Below, piece by piece: positions 4,173-47,402 of a DNA stretch of 64,000 nucleotides; within the stretch, counting starts at the first letter, position 1; each line of letters begins with the position of its first letter. The DNA comes from Octopus sinensis (taxonomy: Eukaryota). Location of the stretch: contig NC_042999.1 of NCBI RefSeq assembly GCF_006345805.1, positions 79,112,001 to 79,176,000 of the forward strand, in the 5' to 3' direction. The position numbers and the translations under genes were made by a program. The notes below the pieces were generated by a model. The model was not told the origin of the DNA. It ran no database searches and saw only the letters and a list, made by a program, of their open reading frames with translations.

Positions 4173-5268
4173 GGTTTCAAATTTTGGCACAAGTTTCTGA
4201 GTAGGCGGTAAGTCCATTACATCGACCCCGGTGTTCAACTGGAACTTATTTTATCGACTGATGAATGAAAAGCATAATCGACCTAAGCTGAATTTAAACT
4301 CAGAACGTAAAAACGGAGAAAATGCCGCTAAGCATTTCGCCCGGAGAGCTAACCATTCTGCCAGCTTGTCGCTTTAATAATAATATTGTTTTTTTTTGCT
4401 TTCTATTATAGCCACAATTTCCGAAATTTTGGGGGGTGAAATGGGGAATGGGGTGGGTGAAGTAGTCGATTACACCGACCACAGTGCTCAAATGGTTATT
4501 TATTTTATCGACCCTGGATTGACGAAACGTAACGTCGATCTGGGCGGCGTTTTAACTCAGAACGTACAGGCGGACGAAATGCCGCTAGTATACGATTGGC
4601 ATGGTCCAGGTAGGGTCGAAAAATCTGACTTGTATATTTAGGAAGAACTTTATAATAAGAATATCAACAGCTATAACGACGACATTGATTATGACGGATA
4701 ATCTCGACAATACATGATGATGATGATAATGATGATGATGATGATGATGATAACGACGACGACGGTGATGAGGACGACAATGATGATGCTGATGATGATG
4801 GTGATGAGGATAATGATTAAATAAATTTTTCACGCATTAGTAAAAGATGCACGCTTTCCAGAGAAACTAGTTATGACTCGTGATTGAATTGAGTCCAACG
4901 TATGACTCGACTCAATTCAATCATTTAGTTCATGACAAATAAATGATGGAAGCTGAAGGGAATGAAACAATGCATGTCATATAGTCCGGCTCTCTATATG
5001 TTCTTTAGTTTTCGTCACCCAGCTAAATTGAAGAAAATTATCTTTCTGGCTGAATGCAGGTTATGATGCAATTCCTACGCACAAGCATATACGTAAACCA
5101 TCTACCCATGCATTCATCCATCCATCCAGCCATTCATATACATACATACATAACTTCACACATACACACATGCGTCTACATACACATAGCTGCAAACTCA
5201 TATGTATATATATATCTTTACATATGTTTATATGTATATGTATATATATACATATATGTATACCTATA

Positions 5269-5319
<51 letters not shown>

Positions 5320-5394
5320 CATAATATACATATATATATTTATACAGATGTGTTTATGTATGTATATATATATATGTGTATATATATATGTAAA

Positions 5395-5870
5395 ACTTGT
5401 GTTTCTTTCTTTCCTTCTGTTTCAGCTGGGGAGAGCAGAAGCATTCTTGTCTGTCTTCTCTCCAAGCTTACTCCTCCGCATTCGCCACCTCACCTCGTTT
5501 AGGCTTAGCACCCCTTCCTGTTTGTTTTCATTGTCCTGTTTTTGTTACCAATTTTGACCCTCCTCAAAATCCTAAATGTTATTTAATTTGCTTAGCGGGA
5601 GCAACTGTTTTATCGAAGGCGTATCTTGTCGCGAATTGTTCGAAATACGGATTATAAAAACAACTAACAACTGATGAGGGTCATTCTTTGTTTTGCTTGG
5701 CTTATTTTCCATTTGTTTCTCTTCTTGTTCGCAAAAAACGTTCATATTCCATGTATTCGTATTTCGTATTTCGTATTTCGTAATTCATGTTTTCGTATTT
5801 TATATTGTTTACGTTCTGTGATGTCCTGCGGCCAAACATGCATATGTATATACGTATATATGTAAGTATG
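5395..5870 (+). mobile_element. Non-coding interspersed repeat carrying a permuted HHR (copy 1)
   Basis: Homologous to the reverse complement of ~22050-22362; T-rich tail ending in tgtcctg..catatgtata; flanked by (TA)n. Confidence 0.65.
5620..5681 (+). ncRNA. Non-circularly permuted hammerhead ribozyme
   Basis: CGTAT-C^-TTGT-(8 nt)-GTTC-GAAA-TACG-(17 nt)-ACAA-CTGATGA-GGGT; AUC site; stems I and III covary relative to the 41166 and 47033 copies. Confidence 0.68.
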
Positions 5871-5892
5871 TACACACACAATATATGTATAT

Positions 5893-5924
<32 letters not shown>

Positions 5925-6006
5925 ATATATATATAATATATATATATATTATATTAAATTAGAGATAAAACCACTATTAGGCAAATCAAACAGTGAAAAA
6001 CATAAT

Positions 6007-14336: not shown

Positions 14337-16813
14337 ATAAAATGTAAAATATTATAGAACAACTTTGTAAGCCTATCATATTGTTGTTGTCTTGTTACAT
14401 TGTTGCTGTTTAGATCCAAGTTAGAACCGATTTATGATCACAATTTCTTTCACCTTTGACTATCCCATCTTTTATTTTTCCTGATATAGTGTCTCTAGTA
14501 TCGCACTATCCAATGTGACCGTCTTTTGTTTGCAATAGTATAGAATGGTTTCGAGGAAATTTAGCTGGAATTCCTTGTAGCTTGAGCAACAACTCTTATG
14601 CATTTTTGATACAACAGTGCGTGACTGAATCGTTAGAGTTGTAGGCAAAATATTTTGTGATGTTTGAGTTACTTCACTGTAAGTTCTAGGTTCAAATCCT
14701 GCCCAGGCAGCGAATTGGCAGAGTTAGAGTATTTGAACAGAATACATCTTGGTATTTAATCTTACTGTCTCTGCTCTGAGTTCAAATTCCACCGAGGTCT
14801 ACATTGCCTTTCAACCTTTCGGGGTTGATAAATTAAGTACCAGATGCATACTGAGATCGACTGGCTCTTCCCCCAACATTTCGAGCCTTGTGCTTAGAGT
14901 AACAAAAAAAAAAAAAGACAATCTTCTTATATAAAACCATATATTTAAAACCACTCACTGTTTTTAAAATAAAAGAATAATCGATGAGAAAAAAATCCAT
15001 GGAAACAGTTTAAAGTAGTGGTTGGATGAATTGTTTGAGAGTCAGGCAGAGTACTGAGTTGTAATAGCGTACGTAGTTGATAAAACTAGCAGGATTCGAT
15101 TTACTAGAGACGAAATTATCAAAACTATTCTTAATGGCAGTGTCATAGCAAAACTACAAACTAATGACTACAAAGGAAAATAAATTAAATTAAATGTCTA
15201 AAATTTAATGAAATTTAATAAGTTTGACGGTCGAAGTTATGATGGTAGTAACTTTGTGAAAGAGAAAATGTATGGTGTTTATCATATATCCCGGCTTATC
15301 CGAGATAACACCACACCTGTAGCACATCACGCCCAGCTATTCTAAAGCAAATCATAAAATATATCGTAAGATTATTGGATGGCAGAATCAGTAGAGCAAC
15401 CGAGAAAATGTCATATGCTCTTTGGACCCGACATATGTGAGCTTAAATATTTCCTGGGTCGATTAAATCTGACGACGTACATCATTCCGAGGTCGATAGA
15501 AATAACACATATTAAGTAGTCAAATCTTGGGTTGATAAAATCAAATACCCTCTTTGAAGGCGATGCTCCAGTATGGTCGTAGCCTAATGTCTAATGTAAC
15601 AGAATGAAAAGAATAACCGAGTCAATAACATTCTGTACTTTACTTCATTTCACTTCATTCAAAACAAGTCTTAACATCGAAAAAGACAAAATAGGCGTCA
15701 CCAACAAAACCTCACCCTTACCCTCAAATACCCACTTTCTTTTCTCCCGTTGTCCTACTAATTTAAAAGCAAATAATAAAATACAATAACGTAGTAAAGT
15801 ATAAGATAATAACAGAAATGGTAGGCATCTTGTCTATGTAGGGAAAGCATTATTATTTCAAAGTGTAGACATTGTAGAGATAATTACAGTATAAATATTG
15901 GTGTTGCATTTCACATAGAGAATCTTTTATTACCCCAGGAGCTAAATTTCCAGTGACTAATCTCAATTATTATAAATAGTTAAGCTACTTGTCTTCAAGC
16001 AGCAGCATCAACTTACAAAAATAAAAATGGTCACTTCGAAATGTGTAATTGGTTTGAAAGCGAATTGGTTGAGTGGTGGTGGAGGTGATAGCGATGGTGA
16101 TGGTGATATGATGGTGATGGTGGTAGTTATGATGGTCGTGGTGTTGATAGCGGTGGTTATGATGGCTATGGTGATAGTTGTTGTTGTTGTGACGCTGGGG
16201 AAGGGGCTAGGGCGTAGATGTGGTGGTGGTGGAGGGGTGGGGGAGTAGACGGCAATCAGGAATTCCCATCAGCCAATCAAATAAAATAGAAAAAGAAAGA
16301 TAAACACGAACAAAAAGGATTGGGAAAAATGAAGGCGAAGGAGAAAGAAAGGTAGGATACGGAAGCCAAAGAAAACACGAAAGAGGAAAAAAGAAAGGAA
16401 CGAGGAAAGAAGGGAAAATTACAGAAAGAAAGAAGACACAGAATATTCTGAAATTCAAGAAATTTAAGTGTTTTCCAATAGTTTCATGACCTGCAAATAA
16501 TAATGTTGAAGTGATTTCGGGTAAGAATGGTAAGTACATGACGTTTAAATTTACCATTACTTCGGTTGCTTACTGAACTCTTTCGTCTTATTATATAAAC
16601 AGCAAGAAGGTTGCTCTTCTTTCCTCATGGGATGGGGGGGGGTCTACTTACGTATGCATATATGTATGTATGTATGTATGCATGTATGTATGAATGTATG
16701 TACGTATGTATGTAGGTACGTCTCTCTCTCCCTATATATATATATATATATATAATATACATACATATATATATATACATATACACATATATATAGTGCA
16801 TGTGCGTAATGAT

Positions 16814-17367: not shown

Positions 17368-17467
17368 NNNNNNNNNNNNNNNNNNNNNNNNNNNNNNNNN
17401 NNNNNNNNNNNNNNNNNNNNNNNNNNNNNNNNNNNNNNNNNNNNNNNNNNNNNNNNNNNNNNNNNNN
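17368..17467. other. Assembly gap (100 N)
   Basis: Run of exactly 100 n. Confidence 0.99.
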
Positions 17468-19632
17468 CTTACTGTCTCTGCTCTGAGTTCAAATTCCACC
17501 GAGGTCTACATGCCTTTCAACCTTTCGGGGTTGATAAATTAAGTACCAGATGCATACTGAGATCGACTGGCTCTTCCCCCAACATTTCGAGCCTTGTGCT
17601 TAGAGTAACAAAAAAAAAAAAAAGACAATCTTCTTATATAAAACCATATATTTAAAACCACTCACTGTTTTTAAAATAAAAGAATAATCGATGAGAAAAA
17701 AATCCATGGAAACAGTTTAAAGTAGTGGTTGGATGAATTGTTTGAGAGTCAGGCAGAGTACTGAGTTGTAATAGCGTACGTAGTTGATAAAACTAGCAGG
17801 ATTCGATTTACTAGAGACGAAATTATCAAAACTATTCTTAATGGCAGTGTCATAGCAAAACTACAAACTAATGACTACAAAGGAAAATAAATTAAATTAA
17901 ATGTCTAAAATTTAATGAAATTTAATAAGTTTGACGGTCGAAGTTATGATGGTAGTAACTTTGTGAAAGAGAAAATGTATGGTGTTTATCATATATCCCG
18001 GCTTATCCGAGATAACACCACACCTGTAGCACATCACGCCCAGCTATTCTAAAGCAAATCATAAAATATATCGTAAGATTATTGGATGGCAGAATCAGTA
18101 GAGCAACCGAGAAAATGTCATATGCTCTTTGGACCCGACATATGTGAGCTTAAATATTTCCTGGGTCGATTAAATCTGACGACGTACATCATTCCGAGGT
18201 CGATAGAAATAACACATATTAAGTAGTCAAATCTTGGGTTGATAAAATCAAATACCCTCTTTGAAGGCGATGCTCCAGTATGGTCGTAGCCTAATGTCTA
18301 ATGTAACAGAATGAAAAGAATAACCGAGTCAATAACATTCTGTACTTTACTTCATTTCACTTCATTCAAAACAAGTCTTAACATCGAAAAAGACAAAATA
18401 GGCGTCACCAACAAAACCTCACCCTTACCCTCAAATACCCACTTTCTTTTCTCCCGTTGTCCTACTAATTTAAAAGCAAATAATAAAATACAATAACGTA
18501 GTAAAGTATAAGATAATAACAGAAATGGTAGGCATCTTGTCTATGTAGGGAAAGCATTATTATTTCAAAGTGTAGACATTGTAGAGATAATTACAGTATA
18601 AATATTGGTGTTGCATTTCACATAGAGAATCTTTTATTACCCCAGGAGCTAAATTTCCAGTGACTAATCTCAATTATTATAAATAGTTAAGCTACTTGTC
18701 TTCAAGCAGCAGCATCAACTTACAAAAATAAAAATGGTCACTTCGAAATGTGTAATTGGTTTGAAAGCGAATTGGTTGAGTGGTGGTGGAGGTGATAGCG
18801 ATGGTGATGGTGATGATGATGGTGATGGTGGTAGTTATGATGGTCGTGGTGTTGATAGCGGTGGTTATGATGGCTATGGTGATAGTTGTTGTTGTTGTGA
18901 CGCTGGGGAAGGGGCTAGGGCGTAGATGTGGTGGTGGTGGAGGGGTGGGGGAGTAGACGGCAATCAGGAATTCCCATCAGCCAATCAAATAAAATAGAAA
19001 AAGAAAGATAAACACGAACAAAAAGGATTGGGAAAAATGAAGGCGAAGGAGAAAGAAAGGTAGGAAAGACGGAAGCCAAAGAAAACACGAAAGAAGGAAA
19101 AAAGAAAGGAACGAAGGAAAGAAGGGAAAAATTACAGAAAGAAAGAAGACACAGAATATTCTGAAATTCAAGAAATTTAAGTGTTTTCCAATAGTTTCAT
19201 GACCTGCAAATAATAATGTTGAAGTGATTTCGGGTAAGAATGGTAAGTACATGACGTTTAAATTTACCATTACTTCGGTTGCTTACTGAACTCTTTCGTC
19301 TTATTATATAAACAGCAAGAAGGTTGCTCTTCTTTCCTCATGGGATGGGGGGGGGTCTACTTACGTATGCATATATGTATGTATGTATGTATGCTGATGT
19401 ATGAAGGTATGTACGTATGTATGTAGGTACGTCCTCTCTCTCCTATATATATATATATAATATATAACATACATAGATATATATACATATACACATATAT
19501 ATATGTGCATGTGGTATGATCGTGTGTGTATATATCTATATATATATATATATGCATTATATGCATATTATATATATATATGTGTGTGGTGTATACATGT
19601 ATATATATATGTATATGTACATATATATATAG

Positions 19633-20107: not shown

Positions 20108-21301
20108 AGACCCCTCATACGCACTTATACTCTCTCATACACACACACACACACTTATACATACTAATACGTACTAATACATACTAATACATACTAATAC
20201 ATACACCAACCCCATACATACGCACGTCCAGACCAATCCTACGCACTAATACTCTCTCATACACGCACACACACACACACACAACAATCTTGCACAACAA
20301 ATATTTAAACGTATATATATATACATATATATATATGCATATATACATATGTATATGTATATACTTACATCTATACGTCTTCCCTCTTTCTCCCTCCCTC
20401 CTTCCCTCTTCCCCTTCCCTCTGCTCCCTCACTCCCTCTCTCCCCTTCTCTCTCCCCCTCTCCCTCTTTCCTCCTTCCTCCCCCTCCTCCCCTTCCTTCT
20501 CCCCCTCCTCTCTCTCCCCCTCCTCTCCTCTTCCCCCTCTCCTCCCCATCTTCTTCCCCTCCCCTTCTCTCCCCCTCTTCTCCTCCTCTCTCCCTCTTCT
20601 CCTCACTACACCACACGACTTTACACATCACATCATATATGATGTGCCATACTAATACATACACCAACTAATACATACTATACGTACTAATACATACTAA
20701 TACATACTAATACATACACCAACCCTATACATACCACGTCCAGACCCCTCATACGCCACTTATACTCTCTCATACACACACACACCCACTTATACATACT
20801 ACTATACTACTAATACATACTATACTACTAATACATACACCAACCCCATACTACGCACGTCCAGACCAATCCTACGCACTAATACTCTCTCATACACGCA
20901 CACACACACACACACACACCCTTATACAAATAAATACATACACCAACCCTATACATACACCGTCCAGACCCCTCCTACGCCTATTAGCTGGTCCTTCTAC
21001 CCTATTATCAACCCTATTATCAACCCTATTATCTCCCCTTATTTCGCTCTCGCGTCTCATGTTTGATCTTTGACCTCTCGCCGAAATCAGATCGCCATGT
21101 TGATTCGTTAGCTACTGCACGCATTTTTTTCTCTCCTTCTTTCTGTGTTTTTTTTTCTCTCTGTGTATCTTTCTGTTGAAGAGCGTAGGCTCGAAACGTT
21201 AAAGACTTGTTTATTATATTTCCTGAGCGCCATACTAATACAATTGTTCGTTTGTTTTCCACCTGCCTTCGTCTTTTGTCTATTTTCATAAAGCTTCCCG
21301 T
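20108..21301 (+). mobile_element. Minimal-HHR repeat (inverted relative to the 7621 copy), interrupted by a pyrimidine tract
   Basis: ctaatacatacaccaaccccatacata..cacgtccagacc units followed by the unique HHR-bearing part. Confidence 0.7.
21168..21205 (+). ncRNA. Minimal type I hammerhead-like motif (variant core CUGUUGA)
   Basis: TCTTT-CTGTTGA-A-GAGC-gtag-GCTC-GAAA-CG-TT-AAAGA; palindromic ACGT in place of stem III. Confidence 0.55.
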
Positions 21302-21354: not shown

Positions 21355-22010
21355 ATGCCCTCTATAAATATAAATGAATATTTTCAAGTGAAAAAAATAT
21401 TTTCGGATTTTTTCTCTTATGAGGTTTTTCACGCTAACTACCTGATAATTTCTTGTTAAGATTTCCTTATTAAGATTTTATCCTTAATTGTTAAATTATA
21501 TATATATAATTTATATATAGAGGACATTATTATACATACATGCCACACGCTTAAGAGGGACAAAATTAGTCATTTCTACCAAAAATTTTACTAATCCCCC
21601 GAATGCAATTTTCAAAGTAAGACATTTAAAAAATATGGACTTGTATCACCTGTGATTTCATACTCTGTATTCATCAGCAAGTCTGGACGCATCATAAATA
21701 AACGAACCCAACTCGTCTAAAGCCGAGCACTATCTGATCAACTTCAACGAAGAACATGGGTGGGTTTACATATTTACATCCGTAAATCGCAGACTTTTAC
21801 GAATTGCATTTCGGGAAAGGAAAGGTTTTTTTCGGAATAAAAATTTAGCAATTATGGACAACTTCTTAATAAGGAAACTTAATAACAAGAAATTATCGGG
21901 TAGATAGCGTGAAAAACCTCATAAAAGAAAAAATTTCGAAAATAATTCTTTCTTATTGAACATATTAATTTATATATAGAGGGCATTATTATACATACAT
22001 GCCACACGCT
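21355..22010 (-). mobile_element. Penelope-like pseudo-LTR structure / retrozyme-like unit carrying an HHR
   Basis: 45-bp direct repeats 21507-21551 and 21966-22010 (459-bp period); ~143-bp inverted copy 21355-21497 vs 21842-21986; HHR inside; (TA)n on both sides. Confidence 0.6.
21638..21683 (-). ncRNA. Complete type I hammerhead ribozyme
   Basis: Minus strand GACTTG-CTGATGA-ATAC-aga-GTAT-GAAA-TCAC-ag-GTGA-TA^-CAAGTC; all three stems are Watson-Crick paired and the core is intact. Confidence 0.8.
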
Positions 22011-22039
22011 ATATATATATATATATATATATATAGATA

Positions 22040-22628
22040 TGTATGTATGTATATATATATGCATAGGTGGACACAGGACGTCACGAAACGTGTACAACAA
22101 AATAATACGAAGTACGAGAATATGGAATATGAACTATTTTTTCGAACAACGAAAGACACAAATGGAAAACAAGACGAACAATATAAAGAACACCCTTCAT
22201 CAGTTGTAGTCTGTTTTTTTTTGCTCTCGTATTTCGATCATTTAACAACAATATATGCTTTCAATAAAACAGTTGCTCTCGTTAAGCAAATTAAATAAAA
22301 TTTGGGATTTTGTGGAGGGTCAAACAGAACAGTGAAAACAAACAAGGGAGGGCTGCTAAGCTTCAAGATTTCAGGATCCAAATTTCAGTGTTTAGTTTGC
22401 AATGAAGAGAATTTGGGTGTTGTACAGACTGAGGTTGTCCGACTGGTCAATATCCTGCTTGCTCCAGATCGATGGTAAGCCAGTATCCAGTTTGCTACAG
22501 ATCGGTGGTAAGCGCGTATATAAATAATATTATACTTATGACAGTCTAATAAAATCCTATCGTTTATCATTACACACTGGTATGTTGGATATACGTAATA
22601 AGTCCCCATACAAAGTGCACGTTACAAA

Positions 22629-28576: not shown

Positions 28577-28810
28577 AAACATATTTAGAAATGGATGCGT
28601 GCGGTTCTTGTATTGTATGTCCTATTTTTTTTTGTTGTTTAAGAAAAAAGTCCATTTCCGTGGTTTTGTGTTTATGTTTTCGTTTCTGATTGTGTTCGAC
28701 GTTTTTTTGGTGTCCTGTACCCATATATGCATGTATATATTCATGTAGATGTAGGTACGTACATATATGTATGTATATATGCATATGCTTTATTTATTAA
28801 TTTGTTATTA
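28570..28810 (+). mobile_element. 5'-truncated copy of the same family lacking the HHR
   Basis: Tail aligns by eye to 41235-41470. Confidence 0.55.
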
Positions 28811-29879
28811 TATATATACATATATATATATATATACACACGTAGACACATATGCACAGACACAACATACACACACACACGTACACACGCACATAGACTC
28901 ACACGCGCACACACATATTCTCACACACACACATACACACACACGCACATGCAAATGAACCCACACATAACTCCCATACACATACACTCATACATACACG
29001 CACACAATTATACATCCATGGATACATACACACACGCACGCACACATACGTACACACATACACGCACACACAGATACACGCTGCACACAAAACACACACA
29101 CACACACACAACATATACATAGACGCACACACAAATACTTCAAACTATCAGTTAAACACCTTTCTAGTGACTATCCTCCTACGCACATGTGTAGGGAGAC
29201 ACAACAGACAGCCACTCCTACCAAAATTCTTACTATAAATTCTTCCTACGACATAAAGCGACACAAAGTCCAACCACACAGATACATAAAGAGTCACAAC
29301 CACACACACACACATACACACATACACGCGCGTACTATCATTAACACACACACACACGCAGTCCTGCGCGCACGCACATACCCACACATACACACACATA
29401 CGGTCTTGTCTTGCACTCTGCGGTCTTAGAAATAATTTTTTTCCTCACCCTTTCCGGTCATTTCAATATGTGACCGCGTGTGTATTGCTGGCGATTGTCT
29501 TTCTCCGTCTTCCGTCTTCCGTCTTTGTACTTTTTCTATATTTCTGATGAAGAGCTTTAATAAAAAATATTACTTTTAATAAACTAATATTTTCAATGAA
29601 CTTTTTGTCTAATATTTTGTCAGATATTTCCTTGTAAACTGTTGTCAACATTTTCTTATTATAATCAAAGAATGTATATATGTATTTCAATACTTTTGTG
29701 CCAACCAGTATTTAACACAACAAACCTTATACAAAGCTTTACATTTTACTTTTGACAATCTCTTTCTAAAAAATTGAAACCGGTCAAGTGAATAAACATC
29801 TTTAAAATTGCATTTTCAAACTTGGAACCTTAATACATATATATATATATATATAATATATATATAATATATATATATA

Positions 29880-41016: not shown

Positions 41017-41392
41017 TTGTCTCCTTTTTTTCATTGGGTTCTTTATTTGTACTGTTTTTTTCTTCATTTGTATTGCTTTTACGTCCTGTTCTTGTCACTT
41101 TTTTTACCCCTCTGCAAAAGAATTTTATTTAATTCATTTTGCAGGAAGGATTGCTTCGGTCGTATCGTGTTCTGCCCTTACCTTCGAAACACGCATTGAG
41201 TCGAAACAGGGGCAGCTGAAGAAGGGGAATATTCCTTGTATTGTTTGTCTTGTACTCTGTTTTTTCGTTGTTAAAAAAAGTCCGTTTCCTTGTTTGATTT
41301 TATATTTTCGTTTCTCGTTGTGTTCTACGTTTATTCATGGTGTCCTGTACTCATATATGCATGTATATATACATATAGATGTAGGTATGTAC

Positions 41393-41425
<33 letters not shown>

Positions 41426-41470
41426 TGTATGTATGTATGTATGTATGCATATGTTTTATTTATTAAATTG
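41017..41470 (+). mobile_element. Same repeat family, second subfamily (copy 3)
   Basis: ttttatttaatt..permuted HHR..T-rich..tgtcctgtac.catatatgcatgtatatat..tagatgtagg tail, shared with 46987 and 28570. Confidence 0.65.
41166..41227 (+). ncRNA. Non-circularly permuted hammerhead ribozyme
   Basis: CGTGT-T^-CTGCCCTT-ac-CTTC-GAAA-CACG-(14 nt)-AGGGGCAG-CTGAAGA-A-GGGG; 8-bp stem I, GUU site. Confidence 0.72.
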
Positions 41471-41657
41471 TATATATATATATGTATATATATAAATGTA
41501 TTTATATATATATATATATATATATGTTTGTGTGCGTTTGTGTGTTTGTGTTTGTCCCCACCATCGCTTGACAACCGATGTTGGTGTGTTTACGTCCCCG
41601 TAACTAGCGGTTCGACAAAATAAACCGATAGAGTAAACAAATAAAAGAGTAAAAGAC

Positions 41658-46986: not shown

Positions 46987-46989
<3 letters not shown>

Positions 46990-47345
46990 ATTTTATTTTA
47001 ATTCTCTCGAGAGAAGGCCTAGCATGACCAGACGTGTCCTGTCTTGCCTTCGAAACACGCTATGTCTGCTAGCGACAGCTGATGAAGGGGATTTTTCCTT
47101 GTGCAGCATGTCCTGTACTTCGTTTTTCTGCTGTACACAATTGTTTTTCCCGTTTTCGTTTCGTCTTGTTCCACGTCTCTGTCCTTCTGTTGTAACAAAA
47201 TGGCTTTTCCGTTTTCGTTTCTGTTGATTTTTACGTCTTCTTGTGGTGTTCTGTACGTATATATATTTATATATGCATGTATATATACATGTAGATGTCG
47301 GTACGTACATATATGTTTGTATGTATGCATATATTTTATTTATTA

Positions 47346-47350
<5 letters not shown>
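46987..47350 (+). mobile_element. Same repeat family (copy 4), inside (TA)n
   Basis: Same HHR and 3' tail as copy 3; long (TA)n on both sides. Confidence 0.65.
47033..47090 (+). ncRNA. Non-circularly permuted (pseudoknotted) hammerhead ribozyme, best-preserved copy
   Basis: CGTGT-C^-CTGTC-ttgc-CTTC-GAAA-CACG-(14 nt)-GACAG-CTGATGA-A-GGGG. Stem III CGTGT/ACACG, GUC site, stem I CTGTC/GACAG, stem II CTTC/GGGG; core intact. Confidence 0.75.

Positions 47351-47402
<52 letters not shown>

Follow-up and report, generated by a model that had tools for sequence, protein, structure and literature searches.

The motif at 47033..47090 on the forward strand of the window (the whole 64-kb stretch of octopus DNA analysed here) raises the question of whether hammerhead blocks arranged in an order that no circular permutation yields can make up a self-cleaving ribozyme and, if so, which element carries them and where the RNA would be cut. 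The reading at which we arrive from sequence comparison, with a probability of roughly 0.7, is a four-helix hammerhead within a non-coding retroelement of thousands of copies; cleavage likely falls after C47038, the backbone is likely open at A9/G10.1, and the likely copying enzyme is a Penelope-like reverse transcriptase (RT).

A hammerhead core in mirror block order

The hammerhead core is present at the locus, including CUGAnGA, GAAA, UH and the pairs A15.1-U16.1 and G10.1-C11.1, all on the + strand. The cleavage block (block S, 47033..47043) consists of a stem III strand (47033-47037, with U16.1 at 47037), C17 at 47038 and a stem I strand (47039-47043), and the GAAA block (block G, 47046..47059) of the stem II 3′ strand up to C11.1 (47051), GAAA (47052-47055) and the second stem III strand (47056-47059); the stem I partner (47074-47078) and the CUGAUGA core (47079-47085) follow, A9 being the end of the ribozyme in the model we prefer. 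This order of cleavage block, GAAA block and CUGAnGA block is that of type SGC and none of the circular orders of types I-III (CGS, GSC or SCG). The first-pass annotation of this DNA had read a hammerhead core in such a non-circular (mirror) order, with correct letters and coordinates for the motif, and both the order and its placement of the predicted cut after C47038, between the stem III and stem I strands of block S, stand. Its coordinates are incomplete, however, as a second stem II partner (47013-47018) and a fourth helix (47019-47028 with 47064-47072) lie outside them.

Copies of the motif fall into eight subfamilies, which we labelled A1, A2, A3, H, E, B, D and G in this analysis. Most copies were retrieved with search patterns that include CUGAnGA and GAAA; neither block S nor the strand upstream of it was used in these patterns. 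A15.1-U16.1 is kept in 120 of 121 copies across the eight subfamilies, the 121 being those of 152 distinct copies that retain block S. Stems I and III are paired in nearly all copies, and compensated pair changes between subfamilies occur at positions 2-5 of stem III and at positions 1 and 4 of stem I, with only a few independent changes per pair, the pair counts coming from related copies. The sequence just 5′ of block S (47019..47028, +) pairs with the linker ahead of the stem I partner (47064..47072, +), and this joining helix, which links stems I and II at their distal ends, is paired in 309 of 371 cells in subfamily A and in 163 of 182 in subfamily B. All three stems around the core covary, as in a hammerhead; the core and stems I and III as first described are confirmed by pairing and compensated changes, and such changes are also seen in the upstream stem II across copies.

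The four ribozyme-bearing copies in the window belong to one non-coding retroelement family. The copy described above is a 5′-truncated member of subfamily A3 (46987..47351, +) that lies between (TA)n tracts and is 97% identical to a full unit elsewhere. The three further copies that had been placed at 41166, 5620 and 22193 (−) were found there: a subfamily A2 copy (41025..41475, +; ribozyme 41145-41222, predicted cut after 41171), whose core reads CUGAAGA, a subfamily B copy with mild decay (5404..5922, +; ribozyme 5599-5677, predicted cut after 5625), and a more decayed subfamily B copy (22010..22361, −; ribozyme 22278-22197) with two mismatches across the four helices. A fifth copy (28607..28836, +) is a 3′ end only, truncated 3′ of the ribozyme. 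The window also contains a short remnant of the retroelement's 3′ tail region (20313-20371, −), a duplicated stretch of about 180 nt (16560-16760 and 19280-19460) whose (TATG)n-rich part resembles the retroelement 3′ end, and an assembly gap of 100 N at about 17370-17470.

Chance does not account for these matches. The core pattern has 3 matches in the window and 0 in 100 shuffles, a relaxed S-G-C descriptor recovers 3 of the 4 window copies with 0 matches in 200 shuffles, and a four-helix descriptor allowing at most 2 mismatches returns exactly the 4 window copies and nothing in 150 shuffles. The family had been predicted to escape standard searches, and it does: an Rfam scan of the window gave no ribozyme among the matches listed (150 of 243), which are microsatellite-driven microRNA hits only, the repeat-finder output also being dominated by microsatellites, and the published SGC descriptors (Eckert 2023, PMC10085705), re-implemented as the excerpted description gives them, matched 0 of 80 copies (85 minus 5 truncated or deleted ones). 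They call, as described there, for CUGAUGAG or CUGAUGAUG and allow no more than 15 nt in the linker; the relaxed SGC descriptor matches 55 of the 80. The exact family pattern occurs in 46 metagenome stretches, none with an SGC fold, and in 0 stretches of viral sequence.

A probable stem II partner upstream of the cleavage block

Stem II had originally been drawn with the G run after CUGAUGA, which is probably a misassignment. The run (47086..47115, +, including a predicted hairpin able to sequester the stem I partner) offers G-C, G.U, G.U and G-C after an insert of 1-3 nt, i.e. two G.U in four pairs, and in the octopus Naiad-type copies treated below this duplex is absent, at +0.8 kcal/mol. 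A better partner for 47046-47051 is a strand running from G10.1 onward (47013..47018, +), which sits 16-21 nt 5′ of block S and forms five or six Watson-Crick pairs: GAAGG/CCUUC in subfamilies A, H and E, GAGCA/UGCUC in B, and GACAC/GUGUC in G. Among 29 aligned copies it is paired in 142 of 145 cells, with G10.1-C11.1 in 29/29 and two-sided change at three pairs, whereas slid controls pair in 25-50%; Watson-Crick pairing at no fewer than four of the five positions, at a near-fixed distance, is seen in 109 of 123 copies, compared with 5/123 for a control window. The upstream duplex is the stronger one in all eight subfamilies, but it weakens in the old ones (D 5/9, G 3/6), which counts against the fold we prefer. 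Because the upstream strand pairs Watson-Crick with the same partner and covaries, we read the ribozyme as four strands rather than three blocks; of the three-strand model that had been proposed, the core and stems I and III remain, and the three-block layout probably does not. The segment 47020-47100 suggested earlier as a construct lacks the upstream strand (47013-47018).

That the ribozyme is instead a plain type-SGC hammerhead, with stem II formed by the G run and the upstream strand accessory or regulatory, is in our judgement unlikely, and would leave the retroelement biology unchanged. It gains from the downstream G10.1-C11.1 pair, feasible in 79/80 copies of subfamilies A and B (54/54 in A), from the conservation of the G run, from the fit of the relaxed SGC descriptor noted above, and from the validated SGC-1, which according to the supplement's oligos likewise has one base inserted after CUGAUGA and 3 nt linking stem I to stem II. 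It loses from the weakness of the downstream duplex in 8/8 subfamilies and its instability in G, from the cnidarian Naiad records, in whose excerpts no downstream partner is seen by eye, and from the joining helix: given the upstream strand, this helix takes the connectivity of the known I-II helix (the strand after 10.x with the strand before 2.x, as we read it from the SGC-1 oligos), which arises only with the upstream stem II. A split fold, with the backbone open between A9 and G10.1, is therefore what we consider probable from the comparison of copies, and the simplest reading, we infer, is a mirror-class hammerhead opened at that junction. The A9/G10.1 junction of natural hammerheads is described as tolerating inserts (passages in PMC4209133).

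In pseudoknot-free folding, six isolated motifs folded no better than their shuffles (z −1.1 to +1.1), and a competing hairpin (mean −12.5 kcal/mol in subfamily A) may trap the stem I partner. An extra helix between the strand before G10.1 and the strand after A9 (−1.6 to −5.6 kcal/mol) is weak in four subfamilies and is not claimed.

A dispersed non-coding retroelement family

In the microsatellite-rich genome of 2.72 Gb, in which a retrotransposon ORF shows 96% identity to a protein labelled Octopus vulgaris, four disjoint exact patterns gave 1,453, 585, 9,172 and 1,005 matches, and their reversed controls 0, 1, 8 and 1. By eye, family members made up 29 of 100 among the listed matches of the 9,172-match pattern and 88 of 100 among those of the 1,005-match pattern, so that about 5,000-6,000 genomic copies carry an intact pattern, a figure that is partly extrapolated. 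Excluded from this count were some 70 of the 100 listed matches of the 9,172-match pattern, which are type I minimal hammerheads with a chance upstream GAAA, and one further pattern-matched family of ordinary type I minimal hammerheads. The type I minimal hammerhead element itself (L259-L288, and an insert in L130) is short and very abundant, with several thousand copies by extrapolation, and has a palindromic stem III and a location in (AAT)n-type tracts.

The unit of the retroelement is 0.76-0.93 kb long (760-933 nt), low in GC and non-coding, with one hammerhead per unit, its longest ATG-started ORFs having 79 codons (ribozyme strand) and 85 codons (opposite strand). Full dimers have periods of 829 and 760 nt; one insertion is a 3.9-unit array of 835-839-nt units, about 99% identical, inside a TA-rich tract; and the young subfamily is arrayed in tandem at 27 of 56 listed places. 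The block order stays mirror-cyclic whether a unit is read singly, as a dimer or as a circle. Copies have their 3′ end in common, set in an AT-rich site with (TA)n or a tail of 40-80 nt behind it, and vary at the 5′ end; automatic classing of the 3′ end placed 39 of 90 copies, 28 at TA and 11 with a tail. Partial tandems (L033, L036) and inverted head-to-head pairs (L003/L004, L131-L134) also occur. The marks of Penelope-like elements (PLEs) are thus present, namely 5′ truncation, partial tandems, an inverted 5′ copy, a 3′ tail and a (TA)n target, and the suggestion that a small non-autonomous retroelement hosts the ribozyme is borne out by the non-coding units, their (TA)n flanks and their 5′-truncated, inverted and tandem copies.

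Some listed copies (L132-L134 at C1:159.7-160.3 Mb, L137-L138 and L179-L180) are near-identical with shared flanks and represent local segmental duplications or assembly duplicates. In L002 and L129 the 5′ part of the unit has a splice-donor-like site at the tail end and a polypyrimidine tract with AG acceptor-like ends, an arrangement that recalls the 5′-UTR intron of Penelope elements; subfamily H lacks the donor-like site.

5′ ends of copies near the predicted cut

If an RT ran off self-cleaved templates, copies would be expected to pile up with their 5′ ends at the cut. We examined copies picked without regard to the ribozyme, through a pattern about 150 nt 3′ of it (1,327 matches). Of the first 100 listed matches 90 were used, those skipped being two in an already-counted dimer, one neighbour and the last seven; one duplicate was dropped later, leaving 89 copies, all on C1 and the start of C2, which were mapped against 11 natural references. 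The 5′ ends of 25 of the 89 fall at −2 to +19 from the predicted cut, with a single end in the preceding 22 nt. That interval has 25 ends in 1,250 bases at risk, and the remainder 36 in 14,694 (rate ratio 8.2, p ~1e-12), and a peak of this kind was reached in 0 of 20,000 scan simulations. Six of the 25 ends lie at +17, where ACAC can match microsatellite flanks, and microhomology may have shifted some 5′ ends, notably these six. Copies that extend past the predicted cut number 46 of 90; with about half of the copies doing so, uncut, multimeric or circular templates are needed as well.

The same data bear on whether the motif still folds but has lost its catalysis, as a relic whose 5′-end peak arises from transcription start, RT stalling or microsatellite microhomology. 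In line with this, the peak ends abut a microsatellite in 18 of 25 cases, compared with 23 of 47 other mapped ends, and the copies running past the site are numerous. The 5′ edge of the peak, however, lies within 2 nt of a site predicted by structure alone, few ends (5, at +29 to +57) lie where stalling would be expected to place them, at the 3′ border of the helices, and the core is retained among subfamilies that show about 70% identity in their flanks or cannot be aligned there. We regard such a relic as highly improbable, and an active hammerhead in the source elements as very probable.

Relation to Naiad elements

Passages of Craig et al. 2021 (PMC8557442) describe the Naiads as elements that encode GIY-YIG and RT and lack canonical hammerheads, although some hold a core, or a half-core with the other half 35-50 nt away on either side, Naiad_Ovul being flagged among them; the same source describes cephalopod Naiads as long-dead remnants. 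A copy of subfamily G (L291) resembles the Naiad_Obim 3′ UTR over about 600 nt and at its end, as well as Naiad_Ovul, when compared by eye with the excerpted records. To judge by this comparison, the old subfamily G is the 3′ UTR of an octopus Naiad with the same four-helix fold. Upstream of a second Naiad-like copy lies a short RT-end remnant, and the other 3′ end that was followed upstream gave nothing.

Naiad records were parsed by eye from supplement excerpts, in which motifs split by a line end escape. In these excerpts at least 15 of the 54 published Naiad consensus records hold the split fold or type CSG. The split fold is seen in nine, of which three Acropora and two Octopus records are named by adjacent headers, the remaining four being assigned by file position (three in the cnidarian block, one in the arthropod block), and type CSG with a I-II helix in six, Naiad-1, -2 and -3_Nbra by name and three by position. 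The nematode records (excerpts of PMC8557442 File S5) contain near-perfect type-CSG hammerheads with a flanking I-II helix, and in the bivalve, hemichordate and fish records of the excerpts neither fold was seen by eye.

It is fairly probable, on these parses, that the hammerhead 'missing' from Naiads is a mirror-order one (type CSG among the nematodes, and a seventh permutation split at A9/G10.1 in cnidarians, octopuses and an arthropod), and that it now drives a young octopus retrozyme lineage of thousands of copies whose cut site is recorded in its insertions. Descent of the window subfamilies from Naiad appears equally plausible from the shared fold; a comparison of these subfamilies with the G copy L314, which is not the Naiad-like L291, gave no BLAST match beyond microsatellites.

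A model for cleavage and mobilisation

In the proposed RNA, read 5′ to 3′, the first stem II strand and the 5′ strand of the joining helix would be followed by the cleavage block (stem III strand, UH, cut, stem I strand), by the stem II partner with GAAA and the second stem III strand, by the 3′ strand of the joining helix, and finally by the stem I partner with CUGAUGA. The joining helix and stem III would form one long hairpin, with both tails entering its loop to make stems II and I, and the joining helix would clamp stems I and II together at their outer ends, a connection also made by the 'I' helix in the validated SGC and CSG ribozymes. A read-through or tandem transcript would then be cut once per 0.76-0.93-kb unit, and some monomers would likely be ligated into circles, an intermediate to which we give somewhat better than even odds. 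A PLE endonuclease would nick (TA)n, and RT would be primed internally, at a constant position some 260-310 nt 3′ of the cut, running off at the cut on a cleaved template and continuing on an uncut, multimeric or circular one to yield partial tandems and arrays. Mobilisation of the PLE type is, given the marks listed above, a reading we hold with considerable confidence, and the type of ribozyme would likely be inherited from Naiad elements.

It could also be argued that two RNAs, or two units within one multimer, have to come together in trans to form the active core, a single unit being inactive. The frequent arraying of the young subfamily would fit, as would minimum-energy folds of the monomer, in which the full core is not shown, and PLE and retrozyme hammerheads are described as active as dimers (passages in PMC4209133 and PMC7229834). 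Stem III, however, has 4-5 bp and is non-palindromic in most subfamilies, unlike that of dimer-dependent ribozymes, the short conserved linkers around the joining helix suit a compact cis fold, and related non-circular forms cleave in cis according to sections of PMC10085705. We consider a trans-only core very unlikely, and keep to cleavage in cis in the model.

Given that cephalopod Naiads are described as remnants and that subfamily H is very young, H may now be moved by another enzyme. With Neptune- and Nematis-like proteins as the only queries, none of 189 motif instances proved to be linked to a PLE ORF on its own strand. PLE ORFs that adjoin copies are separate insertions: those in L025 and L094 lie on the opposite strand, and those in L093, L123 and L082 were rejected as partners since (TA)n lies between or they have their own 3′ end. 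A young PLE family (L135:2283-5024, L099-L128), which we take to be Neptune-like from its motifs, has open frames of up to 914 codons and ends in (TA)n with a tail, and we infer it to be a candidate mobiliser. Its 3′ end carries a type I-like motif with C replacing A9, and it is nested inside the retroelement in L123. Nematis-like PLE families are present as well (L037-L066, L250, L082:600-830); an old one has no hammerhead in the first 500 nt of its 3′ UTR, and others have type I hammerheads. An endogenised viroid-like RNA was dropped as an explanation after the Naiad link emerged.

Discussion

The first-pass annotation had stated that natural non-circular permutations were already reported, and this is so: Eckert et al. 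2023 (PMC10085705) describe natural hammerheads of types SGC and CSG from metatranscriptomes and metagenomes only, with type CSG known from just two metagenome sequences and, in the sections available, none in the genomes of known organisms except one weak bacterial GCS candidate. Non-circularly permuted RNA has so far meant rare hammerheads in environmental RNA with unknown hosts, whereas here it is present in thousands of copies in an animal genome. Descriptors of types I-III would accordingly undercount ribozymes in animal genomes, and the 5′ ends of copies offer rare genomic evidence on where a PLE-type ribozyme is cut in vivo. The mirror-order reading of Naiads is a possible answer to the puzzle of why they lack the hammerheads that other Penelope-like elements carry; if it is true, non-circular RNA permutations would be common in animal genomes and no rarity of metatranscriptomes. 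In the openly accessible literature searched, bioRxiv supplements apart, no hammerhead of non-circular order turned up for an animal genome or for Naiads, nor did any form split at A9/G10.1.

The octopus ribozyme shares with types SGC and CSG, as described in the sections of PMC10085705 available, the mirror cyclic order, the full core, a short linker from stem I to stem II, and a helix between the strand that precedes stem I and the one that follows stem II. In the scheme given there block C is uninterruptible and six permutations result, whereas the octopus stem II 5′ strand likely lies upstream, a seventh order and one that the scheme ruled out. The PK hammerhead, a pistol-like RNA (Zhan et al. 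2024, PMC11300833, in part), also combines a hammerhead core with a pseudoknotted scaffold and a fourth helix, but there, as we read the description of its core, A9 continues into G10.1, a pseudoknot takes the place of helix II, and block order and connectivity differ. Among mobile elements, the metazoan non-LTR retrozymes (Cervera and de la Pena 2020, PMC7229834, in part) are similarly non-coding head-to-tail units of low GC with one hammerhead each, for which PLE mobilisation through circles was proposed; they have type I hammerheads in units of 150-450 bp, in contrast to the 760-933 nt and non-circular ribozyme of the octopus element, whose copies, unlike theirs, are mostly dispersed and 5′-truncated. 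A recent retrozyme preprint (Li et al. 2026, bioRxiv 10.64898/2026.07.22.740005) presents, in the portion available, type I models only. Naiads (PMC8557442, in part) have the same (TA)n targets, partial tandems, inverted 5′-truncated copies and tails, but encode GIY-YIG and RT, whereas the octopus window subfamilies are non-coding and young. The chemistry is a known one; what appears to be new is the permutation, together with its host and its connection to Naiad.
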